Positions 3,598-39,739 of a stretch of 64,000 bases of DNA are shown here, piece by piece. Positions within the stretch are counted from its first letter, which is position 1, and each line of letters opens with the position of its first letter. The translations under genes and the position numbers were made by a program. The stretch comes from Escherichia phage FL23. The notes under the pieces are model-generated. The model made no database searches and was not told the DNA's origin. It saw only the letters and a program-made list of their open reading frames with translations. The stretch lies in the sequence record PP400787. The stretch is one strand, 5' to 3'.

Positions 3598-3934
3598 AGA
3601 TGATTTGGATTTAGATCTAGAAATTATCGACGAATCCCCCTCTTCGGAGGGGGAAGAAGAAAGAAAAGAACGTCTTTTTAATGAATCTCTTAAGATAATT
3701 AAATCTGCCATGGAAAATGTTATCCAGGAGATTGTCATTAAACTAGAAGACGGTTCTACACACATTGTGTATGTGACAAAATTAGATTGGGTTGATGGAA
3801 AAGTCGTAATGGACTTTGCTGTTCTTGACCAAGAAAGAAAAGCTGAGTTAGCTCCTCATGTAGAAAAATGTATTACAATGCAACTACAAGATGCATTTAA
3901 TAAAAGGTCAAAGAAAAAATTTAAATTCTTTTAA
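3590..3934 (+). CDS. 40: gp40 head vertex assembly chaperone (alternative start 3572)
   Basis: Position between uvsX and 41; ATG at 3590 overlaps the uvsX stop; acidic N-terminus. Confidence 0.6.
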   Translation: MNKDDLDLDLEIIDESPSSEGEEERKERLFNESLKIIKSAMENVIQEIVIKLEDGSTHIVYVTKLDWVDGKVVMDFAVLDQERKAELAPHVEKCITMQLQDAFNKRSKKKFKFF

Positions 3935-9775: not shown

Positions 9776-9783
9776 TAATTCAA

Positions 9784-9808
9784 GGACTCCTTCGGGAGTC
9801 CTTTTTTC
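9784..9808 (+). terminator. intrinsic terminator after soc
   Basis: ggactcc-ttcg-ggagtcc hairpin followed by TTTTTT. Confidence 0.8.
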
Positions 9809-20018: not shown

Positions 20019-20279
20019 ATGAAATATGTTAATCGTTCTATCGCGGCATTAGTATTAGCAGTATCTTTAGTAGGATGTACTGATGCTGATAATGCAACCA
20101 AAGTTTTGTCTTCAAGTGGTTTTACTAATATTGAAATTACTGGATATAATTGGTTCGGTTGCTCTGAAAATGATTTCCAACATACTGGATTTCGTGCTAT
20201 TGGACCTACCGGGCAGAAAGTAGAAGGAACCGTATGTTCTGGTCTATTCTTCAAGGATTCGACTATCCGCTTTAAATAA
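20019..20279 (+). CDS. putative lipoprotein, 86 aa
   Basis: Signal peptide with lipobox LVGC (MKYVNRSIAALVLAVSLVGC). Confidence 0.5.
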   Translation: MKYVNRSIAALVLAVSLVGCTDADNATKVLSSSGFTNIEITGYNWFGCSENDFQHTGFRAIGPTGQKVEGTVCSGLFFKDSTIRFK

Positions 20280-20280
20280 A

Positions 20281-20302
20281 AGGCCTTCGGGCCTTTAGCT
20301 TT
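20281..20302 (+). terminator. hairpin terminator
   Basis: aggcc-ttcg-ggcct followed by T-containing tail. Confidence 0.5.
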
Positions 20303-24623: not shown

Positions 24624-25562
24624 ATGTACAATATTAAATGCCTGACCAAAAACGAACAAGCTGAAATTGTCAAACTGTATTCAAGTGGTAATTACACCCA
24701 ACAGGAATTGGCTGATTGGCAAGGTGTATCGGTGGACACAATCCGTCGTGTTTTGAAAAATGCTGAAGAAGCTGAGCGCTCCAAAGTTACCATTAGCGGT
24801 GACATTACAGTTACAGTTAATAGCGATGCAGTTATTGCTCCAGTTGCTAAATCTGATATTGTTTGGAATGCATCTAAAAAATTCATTTCAATTACCGTTG
24901 ACGGCGTAACTTATAACGCAACTCCTAATACTCATTCAAACTTCCAAGAAATTCTTAATCTGCTTGTTGCAGATAAATTGGAAGAAGCTGCGCAAAAAAT
25001 TAACGTTCGTCGCGCTGTTGAAAAATATATTTCCGGTGATGTTCGAATTGAAGGTGGAAGCTTGTTCTATCAAAACATTGAATTACGGTCTGGTTTAGTT
25101 GATCGTATTCTCGATTCGATGGAAAAAGGTGAAAACTTTGAATTTTATTTTCCGTTCCTGGAAAATCTGCTGGAAAACCCAAGCCAAAAAGCAGTATCTC
25201 GACTCTTTGATTTCTTGGTAGCAAATGATATTGAAATTACAGAAGATGGTTACTTCTATGCTTGGAAAGTAGTTCGCAGCAATTACTTTGATTGTCACTC
25301 AAATACCTTTGATAACAGCCCTGGTAAAGTAGTTAAAATGCCACGTACTCGCGTGAATGACGATGATACGCAAACTTGTTCTCGTGGTCTGCATGTGTGT
25401 TCTAAATCTTATATTCGTCACTTTGGCAGTTCAACCAGCCGAGTTGTAAAAGTTAAAGTACATCCTCGCGATGTAGTATCAATTCCGATTGATTATAACG
25501 ACGCTAAAATGCGTACCTGCCAATACGAAGTAGTTGAAGACGTTACTGAACAATTTAAATAA
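24624..25562 (+). CDS. rIIB: RIIB protein, 312 aa
   Basis: Matches T4 rIIB as recalled; follows rIIA. Confidence 0.93.
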   Translation: MYNIKCLTKNEQAEIVKLYSSGNYTQQELADWQGVSVDTIRRVLKNAEEAERSKVTISGDITVTVNSDAVIAPVAKSDIVWNASKKFISITVDGVTYNATPNTHSNFQEILNLLVADKLEEAAQKINVRRAVEKYISGDVRIEGGSLFYQNIELRSGLVDRILDSMEKGENFEFYFPFLENLLENPSQKAVSRLFDFLVANDIEITEDGYFYAWKVVRSNYFDCHSNTFDNSPGKVVKMPRTRVNDDDTQTCSRGLHVCSKSYIRHFGSSTSRVVKVKVHPRDVVSIPIDYNDAKMRTCQYEVVEDVTEQFK

Positions 25563-25575
25563 GGGCTTCGGCCCT
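25562..25575 (+). terminator. GC hairpin after rIIB
   Basis: agggc-ttcg-gccct; weak U tract. Confidence 0.45.
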
Positions 25576-25590
25576 TAACTAAGGAAAATT

Positions 25591-25785: not shown

Positions 25786-25789
25786 AATA

Positions 25790-25813
25790 AGGGGCTTCGG
25801 CCCTTTTGTTTTA
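25790..25813 (+). terminator. intrinsic terminator
   Basis: aggggc-ttcg-gcccct followed by TTTGTTTT. Confidence 0.75.
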
Positions 25814-28374: not shown

Positions 28375-28461
28375 TGAGTAATTTCCATAACGAACATGTG
28401 ATGCAGTTCTATCGTAATAATCTTAAAACTAAAGGCGTCTTCGGACGCCAGTGAGGAAAAT

Positions 28462-32376: not shown

Positions 32377-32655
32377 ATGATTATTGATTCTCAATCCGTG
32401 GTTCAATACACAATCAAAATTGATATTCTAGAAAAGCTATATAAGTTTCTACCAAACCTATACCATTCAATTGTTAATGAATTAGTTGAAGAACTACATC
32501 TTGAGAATAATGATTTCTTAATTGGAACTTATAAAGACCTCTCAAAAGCAGGATATTTCTACGTAATTCCAGCTCCAGGAAAAAGTATTGATGATGTATT
32601 AAAAACTATAATGATTTATGTCCATGATTATGAAATTGAAGATTATTTCGAATGA
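32377..32655 (+). CDS. acidic 92-aa protein, candidate Arn (anti-restriction DNA mimic)
   Basis: 92 aa, acidic, located between motA and asiA where I recall T4 arn. Confidence 0.4.
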   Translation: MIIDSQSVVQYTIKIDILEKLYKFLPNLYHSIVNELVEELHLENNDFLIGTYKDLSKAGYFYVIPAPGKSIDDVLKTIMIYVHDYEIEDYFE

Positions 32656-32804
32656 GTCATAATCTTGAAAAGGTAATCGAGCATAATGTAGCTCAGGAAC
32701 GTAAGTCGTTCAAGGAATTCGTAGAAAAAATTTTTGAAGAAAATAACACAGACCAGTTTACAAATCAAGCGTCTGATGATATTATAACAAAGTCAACTAA
32801 TTGA
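32652..32804 (+). CDS. hypothetical protein, 50 aa
   Basis: Found by reading; ATGA overlap. Confidence 0.35.
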   Translation: MSHNLEKVIEHNVAQERKSFKEFVEKIFEENNTDQFTNQASDDIITKSTN

Positions 32805-32816
32805 GTGGTATAGTTA

Positions 32817-33089
32817 ATGAATAAAAACATTGATACAGTTCGTGAAATTATTACTGTTGCGTCTATTTTGATTAAATTTTCCAGAGAAGATATTGTTGAG
32901 AATCGTGCTAATTTTATTGCATTTCTGAATGAGATTGGAGTAACGCATGAAGGTAGAAAATTAAATCAGAATTCATTCCGTAAAATTGTTTCTGAATTAA
33001 CTCAAGAAGATAAGAAAACCCTCATCGACGAATTCAACGAGGGTTTTGAGGGTGTATATCGATATCTAGAGATGTATACGAACAAATAA
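32817..33089 (+). CDS. asiA: AsiA anti-sigma-70 factor, 90 aa
   Basis: Matches T4 AsiA as recalled. Confidence 0.92.
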   Translation: MNKNIDTVREIITVASILIKFSREDIVENRANFIAFLNEIGVTHEGRKLNQNSFRKIVSELTQEDKKTLIDEFNEGFEGVYRYLEMYTNK

Positions 33090-33746
33090 TTATTTAGCCC
33101 TTCCTAATATTCTGGCCGCCTGAGCACATATTGATTCAAGGCGGTCATTACTTATATGATCATTTCTATACCAGTACATGGTTATCGTTCCAGCATAGAT
33201 ATTATCCAAATTAAAATATGGACAACTGTACATGTAGTTTATTTCGGGAGTAGGCTTTTTAGTTGGTAAAAAAGCAAATTTTGAGTTGGAATAATAATGA
33301 CGTCCATTTAAATGAACTGCATATTCATCCATAGTTTTATCAACAGGATATCCTCCAAGTGATTTTTCACTTATTGTTGAAGGTAATTTTCCTTCATATG
33401 CTATAATATCAACAAAATAGTTTAAGTTTTTAGGGCGGAAAGAATACACCGCACTAAAGTCTGCCTCAGATGATATATGAACTATCTGGAGTTGTTCCAG
33501 GGCGACAGATTCAAAGCGTGCATTTCTTTCCTTTTCAATAATTTCACTGTATGTTTCATACTTTGATTGCTTGTAGTACTCAAAGAAACTATCTCCCCTA
33601 TACCAAACAATCGCCATTATAAACAAAAGAATTACGACAGCTACCCGGGAAGCAAGAACTTTCCCGGTAGCGTTATCTTTGAACAAGCGATCTAGAACAC
33701 CAAACAGAATATCAGAGGGCGAAAATGATATTCTAGGTGCTGCCAT
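33090..33746 (-). CDS. t: Holin T, 218 aa
   Basis: Matches T4 holin as recalled; single TMD near N-terminus. Confidence 0.92.
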   Translation of the reverse strand: MAAPRISFSPSDILFGVLDRLFKDNATGKVLASRVAVVILLFIMAIVWYRGDSFFEYYKQSKYETYSEIIEKERNARFESVALEQLQIVHISSEADFSAVYSFRPKNLNYFVDIIAYEGKLPSTISEKSLGGYPVDKTMDEYAVHLNGRHYYSNSKFAFLPTKKPTPEINYMYSCPYFNLDNIYAGTITMYWYRNDHISNDRLESICAQAARILGRAK

Positions 33747-33776
33747 AGACCCTCCTTTTAAGGATATTTATTCAAA

Positions 33777-34553
33777 TTATACTCTTGGACCATATATTGC
33801 TCCAACATTTATCCACGTTGGAGCAGACCCTATAACAGCATAACCAGCAGCGCCGCCATTATATTCAGATCCTTGACCGCGAATATTGCATCTACCTCCC
33901 GCGGAACCTACTTCACCACCGTTTCCGCCGTTATAGATACCATTCACGGATCCTGAGCCAGGTGCAGAAATAGTACCACCAGTCGCGCCTGATTGCATAT
34001 CAATAGATCCGCCTGGCGCACCAAAAGGACGACCGCCACCGCCGCCAAAGGTCAATCTCATTTGTGAAAAAGGAGAATAATATCCGCCGCCACCGCCGCC
34101 GCCACCGCCTGCAATAGCTCCACCATTATTAATTCTTAGTCTCCCACCAATATCGTTTTGAATACAATGACCTCCAGCTGAGCCAGGACTATTGCTACCG
34201 CCATTCCCGCCACGACCATACATCGTTACGCCGTGTATATTTAACTGAACATATTCATTCGGTGTATCTCCGTACATGAAGAATAAAGGAACATCTTTAG
34301 AATATGATACTAAATCTCCAGTGATATTAAACACTATAGGTGCACTACCTGCCTCAAAACATCTATCTCGGAACCATTGACCATTGAAGTTATGGTCTGC
34401 TCCAAGCGTGTGAATTACTTCAACAGATCGACCTATCATATTACTCATCCAAAATGGAATTCCCATTCTCAATCTCTGCGCGGCACCACCCATCCAAGGG
34501 TCTCCAGTTTGTACCCTCGCAGACCATCCTACCCACGGTCCTTCAACTGCCAT
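33777..34553 (-). CDS. 38: gp38 long-tail-fibre tip adhesin, T2-type with glycine-rich segments, 258 aa (alternative start 34583)
   Basis: Poly-Gly tracts ([23 protein letters not shown]) separating variable segments; GGAGG RBS before ATG 34553. Confidence 0.85.
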
Positions 34554-34584
34554 ATAAACCTCCAAGGGGCCGAAGCCCCTCATT

Positions 34585-37500
34585 TTATTTTAACAATGAT
34601 TTGACTAATTTTTTAAGCTCTTCAATCTCTGACTTAAGTTCCGCAATTTCTGTAGTATGTTCATTTATTGCAGCTGTATTTAAACCAATTACACCGTTAT
34701 AGTTCAAACGAAGTAAAGCTTCGCCATCAGGGTCACCTTCAACTAATTCTGGTAAAATAGCTTGAACTTCTTGGGCTATCAAACCGGCGTTAGGTTCCCA
34801 TTTCTGATTGCCTTCTTCGTCCGTTCCACGTTTCTGCATATAAGTGTAACCGTTAATTTTAGAAAGCTTCTGAGAAGCATTTTCAAATTTAACAAGGTCT
34901 TTTTTAACACGAATATCAGAACGGACATAAACATCACGGACAAACGTTGAATAACTATCATTTGCCTGAACGAGATGCCCATGAGAAACGATAGCTCTTC
35001 CAACTTCTGTCCAAAAAGCACCGGTTGAATCCCAAAGCCCAGGATGAGATTGATAGCCTGCTCCCCAGTTTGCAATATGTACACCATTGGCAACCATGTT
35101 AATTCGCCCATCACCACCATGAACTAATCCGGTATCATTATCACCAATAACAAGACATGGTCCAGTCCACGCCGGGTCACCACCGCCAGCCGATAATCTT
35201 GCTCCGGCTTTAACCATGTCAGGAACGTACATGTTTCCATTATAGTGGAATTCGAAGATAGCTTGTGGGTCGGAACCGTTTTCCTGATTACCTACACGAA
35301 TAATACCTTGTGCCCAGTTATTAGGAATGCGTCGCATACCAAAATCAACACCAGATACGTATCCTTCATTCGTAATAACAGATTTTCCTTTGATAATTGG
35401 ATAATAACTATCATTACCGACGTAGCCAAAATCCACAAATATCGGAGCTTCCTGGCGCCATTGATTTCCCCAATCGCCGGCCTGGTGACTGGTCCAGACA
35501 GAGCCATTAATAAAAAGTCGGTCCCTATTAAAATTAAAAGTGGCAGACCCTTCCGGGTTTAAAGCAATATCACCACCATTATTAACATATATGCCTGATC
35601 TATTTTGGAAACTATAAAACGATATGGCATTATCAGCACCACCATTACCTACATACCAGTTATCAACGCCTGCTTTTTGTCCTTTCAAATAGCCAGATTC
35701 GGTTGCCGCGCTATTAATAACGATGGCATCAGAGTTTGCATTAAGAGTTAAGCGACCTGTCAGCGTATCGCCTTCTTTTGAAACACGGCTATAGACAGCA
35801 CCAAGAAGATTGGTTATATCACCGGAAGAATTAAACGTTTTCCAGATATCAGACCAGATGTTACCATTGCGACCAATAGTAGCTTCACCACCACCAACCT
35901 GGACATTATCAGGGAAGTTAACAGTACCGTCTTGATTAAAACGAGACGTATGGCCTTGTGATCCATCTTCTTTCAGATGATGAATAACGAATGTACCCGA
36001 ATTAATTTCAGTACCTAAAGACCAAACGGCTTTACCGTTTAAAAACTTCTGTTTAACAATAGGATAATATTTGCTTACAGCATCATCATCGATTTCCTGG
36101 AAAATAGGAGCCGCTTGAACATATTGAATATCATAACCACCAGCGCCTGCGCCATGACCAGTAAATTTAATATAGCCGTTTGCTGCGAACGTATTGTAAC
36201 TTGATTGTAAATCTGGAATAGTAACTTTACCAGTATCTAAAGCCATACTAAACGGGCGAAGTGGACCGATATCACCATTTTTACCTTCACCATAAGCAGT
36301 TGGAATAATATGAAGACTTCCTTCTGAACGTCTAAAAATAGCTCCATAATCTGCATTCCAAATGCGAAGAGCATTCACTGCTCCAGATGAAATTTCGCCT
36401 GTTGTGTGAACTCCCCTATTTCCAGCAGTAACACCAGATGATTCAAATGAACCGTTAACGTTCATTTCTACTTCACCTGTTGTAAGTCTTTGAATATAGC
36501 TCATCCAACTAGTTGCATCAGAAATTTCCATGACATTTTTACGATTACCTACACTAGGATTAGTAAACGTATTACCCCAAACAGAAATTGTCATATTATC
36601 AACTGAACTACTACCAGTTGTGTTACCTCTAAACAACAGTGTAGAAGCATTATTTATACCATCGATATTAACAGAACCACCAATAACGTCAATATTACCA
36701 GGAGTAACTAACAAACCGCCATGAGTATTAATGTTTGTAGTACCCTTACCACGGAAATAGTGATGATAATTACCGCCTTGATAATATCCTAAAAGAGTCT
36801 GACCATCTCCAAACGCGTTATTATCGTGGTATGTCACTACAGTAGCAAGAGCATAATTTTCAGTTGGAGGAGTAGTTAAATCGGTTCCGTTAGTAGAATA
36901 TCCAGCTACAAATTTTCTTAGGCTAGTTGTTTCGCTTGGACTAAATAAAAACGTTTTTGTGCCATTGTTAACACTGAAATAATATCCGTCTTGATGCCAT
37001 TTAAATCCAGTATCATTATCTCCTAAAGCAATTGAGGACGTTCCTAATTCAGAATATCCTTTAGGGCCGCCTGGGGTGCCTATAGAAATAGAATGACCCG
37101 CTTTCAATCCACCGGACCATGTAAACGACCAAAGATAAGCGTCAAGTCCATCACCTGCATACCAAGTTATCCCATCATTGTCTTTAACCTCATGAAAAAT
37201 ACCTGCACCTACGGCATTACGCATGACACGAAGATGATTAATAGCAGTAGTGCTTTCAGATAATGGGGTGTTATTTGCTAATGAATAGATATCATAATCT
37301 CCTGCCTTCTTCCCGTTTGTAATAACTTTGTCGGTCAGAATTTGTGGAGACGAAATAGATTTCCATGCTGATACTTCAGGTGAAGTAAATAGGCCACTGC
37401 CTGAAAATGCATAAGTGCTTTCGCTACCAGCGGCGTAGTCTTGAACCCTGATATTAAGTACTTGTGTAGTTAAACCATCATTAGCCGGGGAATAAATGAT

Positions 37501-37896
37501 TCCACGTTCGCGACTATTGCCATCGAAAAAACGAACATGCGCTGTACCTGAACTTTTTGTAATAAGTTCTCCGCCTTCAGTCATAATCTGCCCAGCAGCA
37601 ATAATATCGCGAGTTACTCGAGCAATACCAGTTAAATTAAAATTACCAGTCTGAGTGAAGGTGCCATCTAAAGTATAATCGCCAGTTTGGTTATAATTGC
37701 CTGTATGAATAACATTCCCGTCAATACTACCGCCTTTAGCAAAACCCAGATCAATAATATTTCCTTGGTCATCTTTAGTAAAAAGTACACGGTCTTTTAA
37801 GTTTATAGCCAATTCACCTTCGGCTAATACTGAAGCGGCAGGACGTGCTCCTGCAGTTTTGCTTCTTTTAAATTGTATTTGTTTTAAAGTAGCCAT
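34585..37896 (-). CDS. 37: gp37 long tail fibre distal subunit, 1103 aa, with C-terminal intramolecular chaperone-like domain
   Basis: Position and size; C-terminus SDIRVKKDL...GLIAQEVQ resembles S74-type self-cleaving chaperone domains. Confidence 0.88.
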
Positions 37897-37904
37897 AAGT
37901 CCTC

Positions 37905-38561
37905 TTAATAATAGCCGAAATCTTGAACAGAATCCTTAATAACAATTTGATCAAATCGTGGAACATGTGAGGGTTGAGATGCAGGATTCTGTGAAAAAAG
38001 GTTTGGCGCAGTTAAATTTCCTGTCATAGTGTCTCCAGAGCGTAATACCCTAGAGTTTGCGTTTGCTGTAACAATATTTATTGCTCCATCAACATAATCT
38101 TTCCGCGTAAGGTCATAATTATTTACTGGTGATAACGAAGTTACACGGATTTGTGATGCTTCAATTACACCCTTTGAGCTAATATCTCCATTTCGCGTGT
38201 TAATTACTACAGTTCTACCTGCTGTTCCTTGTGATGATTTAAAACCAATACCATACCACGAAACAATATCCATATTTGTAGTATCATACGTGGCACTATC
38301 ACCAGGACCAGCAAAAATACCATTATCACCTGACCCTGCGCCAGGAACAGTCATTCCTTTATTAAAAATTACTTTATTTAAATAAGTACCACCATTAGCT
38401 TTAGAAACGAAATCGTTATCAGCAGCTTGCGGTTTATTGTATTCTGAATATATTTTAAATGATTTATAGAGTACATCGTCACCGGCTGGATTCAATGGAA
38501 AATTTCCTTGATGCCAAATGACAGAGCCTCCGGTTGTTGAACCTACTTTTAAATCAGCCAT
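37905..38561 (-). CDS. 36: gp36 long tail fibre hinge connector, 218 aa
   Basis: Position and size as T4 gene 36. Confidence 0.85.
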   Translation of the reverse strand: MADLKVGSTTGGSVIWHQGNFPLNPAGDDVLYKSFKIYSEYNKPQAADNDFVSKANGGTYLNKVIFNKGMTVPGAGSGDNGIFAGPGDSATYDTTNMDIVSWYGIGFKSSQGTAGRTVVINTRNGDISSKGVIEASQIRVTSLSPVNNYDLTRKDYVDGAINIVTANANSRVLRSGDTMTGNLTAPNLFSQNPASQPSHVPRFDQIVIKDSVQDFGYY

Positions 38562-38584
38562 TGTATGCCCCTTTATTTTAATAG

Positions 38585-38592
38585 TATTTATA
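38585..38592 (-). promoter_or_regulatory. late promoter TATAAATA upstream of gene 36
   Basis: Reverse complement tatttata ~25 nt before gene 36 start; preceded by hairpin after gene 35. Confidence 0.6.
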
Positions 38593-38623
38593 AAGAAAAA
38601 GGGAACCCGAAGGCTCCCTCAAT

Positions 38624-39739
38624 TTAAACTTCTCTAAATTCTTGTCCAAACACTTTACCAGTTTTAGACGATGCTTGTGTAGGAAGTACCATTATATCTG
38701 GAGGTGAAGCAGATTCACAGACATAATTAACGCGAATACCGTTGACGCCAAATTCAGCAGGTTTTGAAATGCCGCCATTTCTTGATACTTCAGAAAAGCT
38801 TAAATTTCTCATGCCTCCTTGACCTGCTTGGGCAGTTCTTTGTGCATATATCGTAAATCCTACCGCATTTTCAGGAACAACTACATAGTCTTCCTTTAAT
38901 TCCCATGACCCAGCTTGACCAGTAAACTCAGCATGTGTTGAAGAAATATATCCATCCGATTCATTATAAAATCTAATGGATATATTCGTAGTTCCAAGAG
39001 CAAGTAAATCAGCATCAGCATATAGTTGTGCTTTAAGATAAAGAACATCGCCTGGAATTAAATTATAATCAGATAATTTACTTATAGCAGCTGAAGTTGG
39101 TAGACGCGCAATTTCGTTATTAGTTCCACCAACCGCTGACATAAACTGCTCAACGCTTTCATATGTTCTTCTTGGAAACCCGGTAGCTCCGACGTCTTCT
39201 AAACTGTCAAATACAACATCTAAAATAGTTTGATAATCATCCGTGCTTTTTCTGTTGCTCAGTTTAACATGCTCTAATGCGATAGCTCTTTTAGAAGAAG
39301 TGTAAAAAGCAGCATATGATACATCAAATCTTGACAATACAGAGTCAGATGGAAAAGCAGACGTTCCTGCTGTTCTTAACCAAGATACTACTTCAGGAGG
39401 AAAATTAACCTTTCCGCTAGTTAATATAGCAACAATTCTATTATTCGTCAAAGAATTCATGAAACTAACAAAAGCGGCTGATGTAGTATCATTTGAAGTA
39501 GAAAAAGCATATGACTTACTATCAACTAATGCTCCTGTAGAGGGATCAAAAACTCTTAAATGAAGACCTGCGCTAAATGTTTGATTTCCTACAGGATTAT
39601 CCTGAAATTTAACATATGGTCCTGCGGTAGAAAGCGGGCAAGAACCCGCTATACTTATTTTGTATCTTACTGAATTGCTTTCCGATAAAAATGGCGTTTG
39701 GACATATCCTTGTCCAAACTCTGCCATAAATTTTTCCAT
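38624..39739 (-). CDS. 35: gp35 long tail fibre hinge protein, 371 aa
   Basis: Position and size as T4 gene 35. Confidence 0.85.
   Translation of the reverse strand: MEKFMAEFGQGYVQTPFLSESNSVRYKISIAGSCPLSTAGPYVKFQDNPVGNQTFSAGLHLRVFDPSTGALVDSKSYAFSTSNDTTSAAFVSFMNSLTNNRIVAILTSGKVNFPPEVVSWLRTAGTSAFPSDSVLSRFDVSYAAFYTSSKRAIALEHVKLSNRKSTDDYQTILDVVFDSLEDVGATGFPRRTYESVEQFMSAVGGTNNEIARLPTSAAISKLSDYNLIPGDVLYLKAQLYADADLLALGTTNISIRFYNESDGYISSTHAEFTGQAGSWELKEDYVVVPENAVGFTIYAQRTAQAGQGGMRNLSFSEVSRNGGISKPAEFGVNGIRVNYVCESASPPDIMVLPTQASSKTGKVFGQEFREV

Follow-up and report, generated by a model that had tools for sequence, protein, structure and literature searches.

The gp37–gp38 host-range module of a T6-like Tequatrovirus: a tail fibre with a predicted self-cleaving chaperone, a Tsx-type adhesin and a conserved intercistronic hairpin

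Introduction

How does a T-even-like phage build the tip of its long tail fibre so that it recognizes a particular receptor, and what is the role of the small GC-rich hairpin that lies between the genes for the fibre and its adhesin? We have addressed these questions for the gene 37/38 locus in a 64,000-nucleotide stretch of DNA from Escherichia phage FL23 (record PP400787; hereafter the window). On the minus strand the genes run 36, 37, 38, t, with gene 37 on one side of the gp38 gene and the holin gene, t, on the other, and the region 33600–35200 shares 100% identity and all gene calls with Escherichia phage FL44 (PP400790.1, Tequatrovirus). With high confidence we regard the locus as the host-range module of the distal long tail fibre in a T6-like Tequatrovirus. 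The module sets which bacteria are open to infection, which gives it relevance to host-range engineering for phage therapy. Its parts and their mechanism are already known from published work, and the Tsx receptor has been published for FL44; mildly new are only the breadth of conservation of the hairpin and the differing placement of the Shine-Dalgarno sequence in T4.

Results

The C-terminal chaperone domain of gp37

The gp37 open reading frame (34585–37896, minus strand) encodes 1103 amino acids ending in ...SLLK. Its mature part, a trimeric distal half-fibre, comprises residues 1–992 (34921..37896, minus strand) as delineated by the reading frame, Pfam and the structure 6F45_A, with the boundary placed by homology to the cleavage site of Salmonella phage S16; both Pfam profiles Gp34_trimer and gp37_trimer match this part. 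Residues 993–1103 together with the stop codon (34585..34920, minus strand) are assigned to an intramolecular chaperone of the Peptidase_S74 type on the basis of PF13884 and 6F45_A. The profile matches residues 993–1052 (E 2.1e-12; 47.6 bits against a curated cutoff of 22), and 6F45_A, the S16 gp37 construct, is matched by residues 914–1103 (E 1.2e-43) as well as by the last 116 residues (E 5.1e-33). The S74 domain sits at the extreme C-terminus and ends in a heptad-like helix, and the part upstream of it matches the trimeric 6F45_A tip and the fibre trimerization profiles. An earlier note on this DNA had proposed that roughly the last 120 residues of gp37 resemble a chaperone that is cut off after folding. 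The domain itself is borne out by the profile and structure matches and by the Ser-Lys motif described below; its length is corrected to 111 residues.

The domain starts with a Ser-Lys motif of the form SDxRxK, S993-D-I-R-V-K998, in which SDIRVK aligns with SDRRIK in S16, SDIRLK in T2, SDSRLK in T6, and ADLRAK and SDERLK in 7DC3 (MYRF) and 8JOV, respectively. When the chaperone domain alone was searched against the PDB, matches beyond S16 were weak (E 0.014 for 7DC3 and E 0.026 for 8JOV), and these two were used for the motif alignment only. S993 (codon 34920–34918) and K998 are predicted to be the catalytic residues. For S16 gp37 the cleavage site has been defined experimentally as DLNVS^SDRRIKK, with removal of 113 residues (PMC7917993). 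Because the two sites align, we place the cut in the present gp37 (and hence that of FL44) at DVYVR^SDIRVKK, i.e., between R992 and S993, which would release 111 residues. The last strand of the processed fibre, DVYVR, is predicted to provide the face on which gp38 docks. C-terminal processing of gp37 followed by capping with gp38 is established for T2 and T6 (PMC3157838, citing Drexler 1986).

gp38 is assigned as a receptor-binding adhesin

The gp38 open reading frame (33777–34553, minus strand) encodes 258 amino acids and divides into two domains. Residues 1–40 (34434..34553, minus strand) constitute the N-terminal attachment domain and match the whole of Gp38_N (PF21721, model positions 1–40 of 40, E 5.1e-20). 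Residues 41–258 with the stop codon (33777..34433, minus strand) constitute a receptor-binding domain built of a β-helix and a polyglycine-II (PGII) sandwich, as identified from PF05268, 9V85 and 6F45_D: the GP38 profile (PF05268) matches residues 45–258 over its full length (model positions 1–218 of 218, E 2.9e-71), and the two PDB entries, both solved PGII sandwiches, are matched with E 2.1e-78 (9V85) and E 1.4e-50 (6F45_D). Glycine tracts occupy residues 115–119, 149–157 (nine consecutive glycines), 170–174 and 209–213. In an alignment of eight adhesins, i.e., those of FL44, T6, T2 and five metagenomic relatives, the tracts are invariant and the segments between them vary, in agreement with the earlier description of polyglycine tracts flanking variable segments. 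Invariant in the same eight sequences are W7, W20 and W35; in S16 the conserved gp38 tryptophans have been described to plug into the gp37 tip (PMC6851490).

T4 gp38 shows no sequence similarity to the present gp38 (BLASTP E 0.98). By these comparisons gp38 is classed as a T2-type adhesin and not as a T4-type assembly chaperone, as had been claimed. The opposite view, that the main task of gp38 is that of a T4-like assembly chaperone for gp37 and that gp37 itself contacts the receptor, could draw on records such as that of T6, in which homologues are labelled 'distal long tail fiber assembly catalyst'. However, gp37 carries a chaperone domain of its own, a homologous gp38 caps the fibre tip in the solved structure 6F45, and receptor specificity tracks the phylogeny of gp38, that of FL44 included (PMC12032242). 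Together with the dissimilarity to T4 gp38, this makes an assembly-chaperone role scarcely credible.

The variable segments of the adhesin, which the earlier note had taken to determine receptor specificity, point to Tsx as receptor. Residues 41–258 show 92.7% identity to T6 gp38 and differ from it by only about four substitutions in the variable segments, and the protein as a whole is 93.8% identical to RB27 gp38. T6-like adhesins, that of RB27 among them, use Tsx (PMC3157838). The variable loops of gp38 are T6-like, corresponding to a Tsx receptor, and for FL44 Lutz et al. 2025 (PMC12032242) showed with deletion mutants that the phage needs Tsx: it does not plate on a mutant with tsx deleted.

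The start codon of gp38

Two in-frame ATG codons lie at the start of gene 38, as the earlier note had described. The first gp38 codon is the ATG at 34553, which follows a Shine-Dalgarno sequence, GGAGG (34559..34563, minus strand), read from the sequence 5 nt upstream; relatives carry a GGAG/AGGA-type motif at the equivalent position. The preference of the earlier note for this codon stands: Gp38_N residues 1–40 fit the 258-residue form, the methionine of MAV... is where both S16 gp38 and the Gp38_N profile start, and the codon is annotated at 34553 or its equivalent in FL44, RB27, vB_Eco_CP and ESh32.

The other ATG (34583–34581, minus strand; 34583..34585 with the end of the stop codon) begins one base after the TAA stop codon of gp37, the last base of which is at 34585. 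Were gp38 to begin here, it would have 268 residues, and the hairpin would lie within its coding sequence and might regulate translation of this longer form. The codon does open the longest mechanically called reading frame, and its proximity to the gp37 stop codon makes termination-reinitiation coupling conceivable. Against this stands the observation that it is a private two-base variant: the junction reads TAAAATG in FL44 but TAATAAG in relatives, no relative examined has the ATG, not even those with 94–97% identical gp38, and exact matches in IMG/VR number zero for the FL44 junction and four for the common one. In addition, no Shine-Dalgarno sequence is found upstream of ATG 34583, the U and G of this codon are paired within the hairpin stem, and both the annotations and the homologous N-termini agree on the downstream start. 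Initiation at 34583 is thus very improbable, and we treat the 268-residue reading frame as an artefact of the private ATG and 34553 as the start of gp38.

A conserved hairpin at the gene 37/38 junction

A C(UUCG)G hairpin (34563..34582, minus strand), identified by folding, conservation and covariation, separates the stop codon of gp37 from the Shine-Dalgarno sequence of gp38. Its 16-nt GC core, aggggcttcggcccct, is located at 34580–34565 on the minus strand, just where the earlier note had placed it. With A-U and G-U pairs the hairpin spans 34582–34563 and has a stem of eight pairs capped by a UUCG loop (GAGGGGC-UUCG-GCCCCUU); it begins 4 nt past the gp37 stop codon and reaches as far as the gp38 Shine-Dalgarno sequence. 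For the intergenic RNA of 37 nt the folding energy is -13.3 kcal/mol. A larger structure around the stem was rejected, the 91-nt context showing no gain in folding energy over shuffles (z -0.97), and the signal therefore resides in the local stem alone.

The hairpin is kept in position in 19 of 20 divergent phages compared, and occurs at the 37/38 junction in at least six genera of the Straboviridae with compensatory changes in the stem. Covariation was counted in the 15 sequences with 4-nt loops, since MAFFT misplaced the five with 3- or 5-nt loops. In these 15, both bases change in four of seven pairs, and pairing is retained in 94.3% of cells; none of 500 shuffles reached the observed covariation score, and controls in which the stem was slid were at most 74% paired. 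Hairpins of this kind are enriched in the window as a whole, with eight C(UUCG)G hairpins of at least six stem pairs against 0.11 expected, mostly positioned just after stop codons. A scan of 32500–39000 against Rfam with E values up to 1 returned a chance snoRNA match only, and the hairpin therefore has no curated RNA family.

Transcription and the role of the hairpin

The late-promoter match TATAAATA is present upstream of gene 36 and was not found between genes 37 and 38, and a separate late promoter for gene 38 was rejected on this ground. A further match at 36658–36651, inside gene 37, belongs to a set whose number, 7, does not exceed the 10.4 expected by chance. Genes 36, 37 and 38 are probably expressed as one late transcript.

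Could the hairpin be an intrinsic terminator, acting partially on the late 36–37 transcript or on antisense, early-direction transcripts of the plus strand that enter the late fibre genes? A scan with the terminator consensus flags it on the plus (antisense) strand only, with CATTTTATTT after the stem; the annotation of Klebsiella phage Miro labels its counterpart a 'terminator', and at the adjoining 35/36 junction a UUCG hairpin carries a true U-run. On the sense strand, however, the stem is followed by UUGGAGGUUUAU and not by a U-run, and a canonical intrinsic terminator in this direction was rejected. The T-richness on the plus strand simply complements the A-rich end of gene 37. Full termination would furthermore leave gene 38 unexpressed, because it has no late-promoter match of its own, and the same hairpin is known in T4 from translation initiation, not termination (PMC3014915). 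We consider a terminator function unlikely. Most likely, the hairpin keeps the expression of gp37 apart from that of gp38, as a barrier in RNA stability or processing or as a weak attenuator.

Discussion

Proposed mechanism

The mechanism that we propose for the module follows that of its homologues. gp37 would fold as a trimeric β-helical fibre with its last 111 residues acting as intramolecular chaperone. Once the trimer has formed, the S993/K998 dyad would cut between R992 and S993, and the chaperone would depart. A single gp38 monomer would then cap the newly exposed tip at the last strand, DVYVR, with its three-helix N-terminal domain inserting W7, W20 and W35 into pockets of the trimer, and its C-terminal PGII sandwich would display variable loops of the T6 type for binding to Tsx, a nucleoside channel of the outer membrane. 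gp38 would be translated from ATG 34553 behind GGAGG, on a probable late transcript shared with genes 36 and 37, and the hairpin may serve to separate expression of gp37, with three copies per fibre, from that of gp38, with one.

The analysis contributes some small additions to this picture, i.e., a predicted gp37 cleavage site for FL44 (R992^S993), the recognition of the 268-residue gp38 reading frame as an artefact, and the 37/38 UUCG hairpin with covariation across genera and with Shine-Dalgarno sequences on opposite sides in T2-type phages and T4. In the searched passages of the FL44 paper (PMC12032242), neither the chaperone domain of gp37 nor the hairpin nor the upstream ATG is discussed.

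Comparison with known systems

The hairpin belongs to the kind of RNA element found between many T-even genes. An almost identical hairpin, GAGGGGCUUCGGCCCUUC, occurs at the 37/38 junction of T4, where it forms part of a 'split' ribosome-binding site that brings the Shine-Dalgarno sequence and the AUG of gene 38 from 22 nt to 5 nt (PMC3014915). Unlike in T4, the Shine-Dalgarno sequence comes after the stem, on its 3' side, at normal spacing in the present phage and in T2, T6, S16, CC31, Miro and others, and the hairpin here therefore cannot bridge Shine-Dalgarno sequence and AUG. A more far-reaching reading, to which we give little weight, is that the hairpin is an ancient element fixed in position across the Straboviridae whatever gene 38 follows. 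It would set a gp37:gp38 ratio of about 3:1 in T2-type phages, by protecting the gene 37 message or by damping gene 38 translation. The T4 arrangement would then be derived, a Shine-Dalgarno sequence 5' of the retained hairpin having taken over after replacement of the adhesin gene.

A close structural counterpart is the gp37(3)–gp38 tip of Salmonella phage S16 (PDB code 6F45; Dunne et al. 2018), which has a trimeric gp37 with a self-cleaving C-terminal chaperone and a monomeric gp38 cap with three tryptophan prongs, a β-helix and a PGII sandwich; by homology, the architecture here would be the same. S16 gp38 is 46–50% identical to the present one, but its variable loops differ, corresponding to OmpC in S16 and Tsx here. 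The residue preceding the cleaved serine is Ser in S16 and Arg at the predicted site, and the S16 hairpin at the equivalent intergenic position has a UACG instead of a UUCG loop. With C-terminal chaperones of the endosialidase type (PF13884), gp37 has in common the profile match, the extreme C-terminal position, the SDxRxK motif and the heptad-like helix; those chaperones are borne by tailspikes, whereas the present one is located on a T-even long tail fibre, the cut end of which is capped by a separate adhesin.

Over 33600–35200 the window does not differ in sequence from the gp37/gp38 region of FL44 (PP400790.1), the phage for which Lutz et al. 2025 (PMC12032242) describe Tsx dependence. The receptor-binding part of gp38 resembles that of T6 gp38 and the T6-like adhesins of RB27, RB14 and RB5, all Tsx users (PMC3157838), but the attachment domain (residues 1–40) shares only 50% identity with its T6 counterpart, and the gp37 chaperone domain only 30% with the one in T6, compared with 57% with the one in S16. 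The fibre tip and docking domain are therefore assigned to an RB27/S16-like lineage and the receptor-binding part to a T6-like one, and judged by these identities the combination is the usual modular mosaic of fibre tip and adhesin.

The tail-fibre locus

Genes 36 (37905–38561), 37 (34585–37896, 1103 residues), 38 (33777–34553, 258 residues) and t, encoding the holin (33090–33746), follow one another in this order on the minus strand, convergent with the plus-strand genes asiA and motA, and constitute the canonical T-even long-tail-fibre block. According to a database sequence search, the 1.6 kb at 33600–35200 matches, with 100% identity, Escherichia phage FL44 (PP400790.1), a Tequatrovirus from pig faeces in Denmark with E. 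coli MG1655 as isolation host, and the genes are referred to here by that name; 578 further phage records match the same segment at lower identity. As a host-range cassette of the T2/T6 type the module is textbook material, and it is already known, the exact phage and its receptor having been published. Every feature described in the earlier note is present in the sequence and its interpretation is supported. Our additions are modest: a cleavage-site prediction for FL44 gp37, the dismissal of a longer gp38 ORF, and, for the 37/38 hairpin, cross-genus covariation and a Shine-Dalgarno sequence that has switched sides relative to T4. Downstream, at 33015–33047 (−), the t transcript has a terminator-like hairpin of 14 pairs, located in the 3'-terminal part of the coding sequence of the convergent asiA.

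The gp37 chaperone domain

The proposed resemblance of the gp37 C-terminus to an intramolecular chaperone domain is borne out by profile search, since residues 993–1052 match Pfam Peptidase_S74 (“chaperone of endosialidase”) with E 2.1e-12 and 47.6 bits (cutoff 22). Against PDB 6F45 chain A, the construct of the gp37 tip of phage S16, the C-terminal 190 residues give E 1.2e-43, and the C-terminal 116 by themselves E 5.1e-33. The chaperone domain starts with S993-D-I-R-V-K998, and the S-D-x-R-x-K motif is common to gp37 of T2 (SDIRLK), T6 (SDSRLK) and S16 (SDRRIK); it also aligns, in weak PDB matches, with other self-cleaving domains, i.e., MYRF (7DC3) and a tail fibre (8JOV). In S16 gp37, cleavage at DLNVS/SDRRIKK removes 113 residues (PMC7917993), and for T2 and T6 gp37 C-terminal cleavage with subsequent capping by gp38 is reported in PMC3157838, citing Drexler 1986. 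With the S16 site as reference, FL44 gp37 is predicted to be cut at DVYVR/SDIRVKK, between R992 and S993 (S993 codon at 34920–34918), which would free 111 residues.

The gp38 adhesin and its receptor

The assignment of gp38 as a T2-type adhesin rather than a T4-type chaperone holds. The 258-residue protein covers the whole Pfam GP38 model (E 2.9e-71), and its residues 1–40 match positions 1–40 of Gp38_N (E 5.1e-20); it matches the receptor-binding domain of the OmpC-binding phage PP01 (9V85; E 2.1e-78; PMC12892980) and full-length S16 gp38 (6F45_D; E 1.4e-50). Comparison with T4 gp38, the chaperone, gave no similarity (E 0.98). Glycine tracts occupy residues 115–119, 149–157 (nine glycines in a row), 170–174 and 209–213. 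In an alignment of gp38 from FL44, T6, T2 and five metagenomic relatives, these tracts are invariant and the segments between them variable, and W7, W20 and W35, whose equivalents in S16 gp38 are the three “prongs” by which it docks on the gp37 trimer (PMC6851490), are likewise invariant. One metagenomic relative (IMGVR_UViG_2974787500, 1501–2334) carries an in-frame tandem duplication of a glycine tract and the second variable segment in its gp38; such duplication may be a way to change the receptor range.

Over residues 41–258, gp38 is 92.7% identical to T6, 69% to Ox2, 52% to T2 and 50% to S16, with only about four substitutions relative to T6 within the variable segments, and RB27 gp38 is 93.8% identical to that of the window. 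Tsx is the receptor of T6-like adhesins, RB27 included (PMC3157838), and Lutz et al. 2025 (PMC12032242) showed directly, on MG1655 receptor-deletion mutants, that FL44 is Tsx-dependent; the receptor check proposed in the earlier note has therefore already been answered experimentally. Identity to T6 falls to 50% in the N-terminal domain of gp38 and to 30% in the gp37 chaperone domain, which shares 57% with S16. The low T6 identity of the docking and chaperone domains thus assigns the fibre tip and docking domain to an RB27/S16-like lineage and the receptor-binding domain to the T6 lineage. Such modular shuffling at this locus is well described. The mosaic breakpoint falls close to gp38 residue 40 (gp38, 33777–34553, and gp37 chaperone domain, 34585–34920, both −).

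The gp38 start codon

The start considered probable, ATG 34553 after GGAGG, agrees with several lines of evidence: GGAGG lies 5 nt upstream, this methionine aligns with the first position of the Gp38_N profile and of S16 gp38, and the annotated start in FL44, RB27, vB_Eco_CP and ESh32 is this ATG or its equivalent. An in-frame ATG at 34583, one base past the gp37 stop codon, would yield 268 residues. No Shine-Dalgarno sequence precedes it, and two of its bases, U and G, take part in pairing at the foot of the stem. Where FL44 has TAAAATG, TAATAAG is present in all 13 relatives from IMG/VR and in the three nearest in GenBank, and FL44 alone in this comparison has ATG 34583; the FL44 version of the junction has 0 exact IMG/VR matches and the common version four. 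The longer ORF is rejected as an artefact of two private substitutions because its ATG is private to FL44, without a Shine-Dalgarno sequence and partly in the stem.

The 37/38 hairpin

The 16-nt GC hairpin noted between the gp37 stop and the gp38 start was located as the palindrome aggggcttcggcccct at 34580–34565 (−). As RNA, GAGGGGC-UUCG-GCCCCUU forms a stem of 7–8 pairs capped by a C(UUCG)G tetraloop, and the intergenic folding energy is −13.3 kcal/mol. A GC-rich hairpin occupies the same site, a few nt past the gp37 stop and directly before the gp38 Shine-Dalgarno sequence, in Tequatrovirus (T2, T6, Ox2), Gelderlandvirus (S16), Moonvirus (Merlin), Karamvirus (CC31, KMB17), Slopekvirus (Miro), Kagamiyamavirus (EcS1) and an Erwinia phage; among the compared phages it is missing only in Yersinia phage fHe-Yen9-01, with a junction of just 7 nt. 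Stem variants include GGGGC/GCCCC, GAGGGC/GCCCUC, GAGCC/GGCUC, GGGCC/GGCCC and GGGGGC/GCCCCC. Among the 15 sequences with 4-nt loops, to which the count was restricted, 94.3% of cells are paired and both sides change at 4/7 pairs; the observed covariation score was reached by 0/500 shuffles, and pairing falls to 74% or less in slid registers. Compensatory changes beyond these controls show that the hairpin structure is under selection. An Rfam search found no family covering it.

The 37/38 hairpin belongs to a class of C(UUCG)G hairpins with stems of at least 6 pairs, of which the window holds 8 versus 0.11 expected from Markov-1 surrogates (CTTCGG, 25 versus 13.5): 3635–3654, 9782–9803, 20279–20296, 25560–25577, 25789–25806 and 28434–28449 on the plus strand, and 38620–38599 (35/36 junction) and 34582–34563 (37/38 junction) on the minus strand. 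Almost all follow directly after the stop codon of an ORF on the same strand.

At the 35/36 junction (38620–38585, −), a terminator-like UUCG hairpin with a U-run is followed directly by the late-promoter match TATAAATA (38592–38585, −) upstream of gene 36; a single late transcription unit of genes 36-37-38 is therefore probable. No TATAAATA match was found between 37 and 38 that would give gene 38 its own late promoter. A canonical sense-strand terminator is rejected for the 37/38 hairpin, the stem of which is without a U-run, and the terminator scan is positive on the plus strand only. On that strand (34565–34590), the palindrome followed by CATTTTATTT passes the scan and could stop early-direction antisense transcripts entering the late fibre genes. 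For the sense strand, the role best inferred is that of a barrier acting on RNA stability or processing, or of weak attenuation, by which the hairpin would uncouple the amount of gp37 made (three copies per fibre) from that of gp38 (one copy per fibre).

Comparison with T4

T4 gene 38 is unrelated to gene 38 of the window and T4 gp37 is without the chaperone domain, yet the T4 37/38 junction (NC_000866; 5621–5652 of the T4 sequence compared) carries a nearly identical hairpin, UAAGGAGAGGGGCUUCGGCCCUUCUAAAUAUG (compare 34553–34587 of the window). This is the known “split” initiation region of T4 gene 38, where a gap of 22 nt between Shine-Dalgarno sequence and AUG is reduced by the stem to 5 nt (PMC3014915). 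The Shine-Dalgarno sequence is located 5' of the stem in T4, but 3' of it and at normal spacing in FL44 and all T2-type phages examined, T2, T6 and S16 among these, and the bridging role of the T4 hairpin is therefore impossible in FL44.
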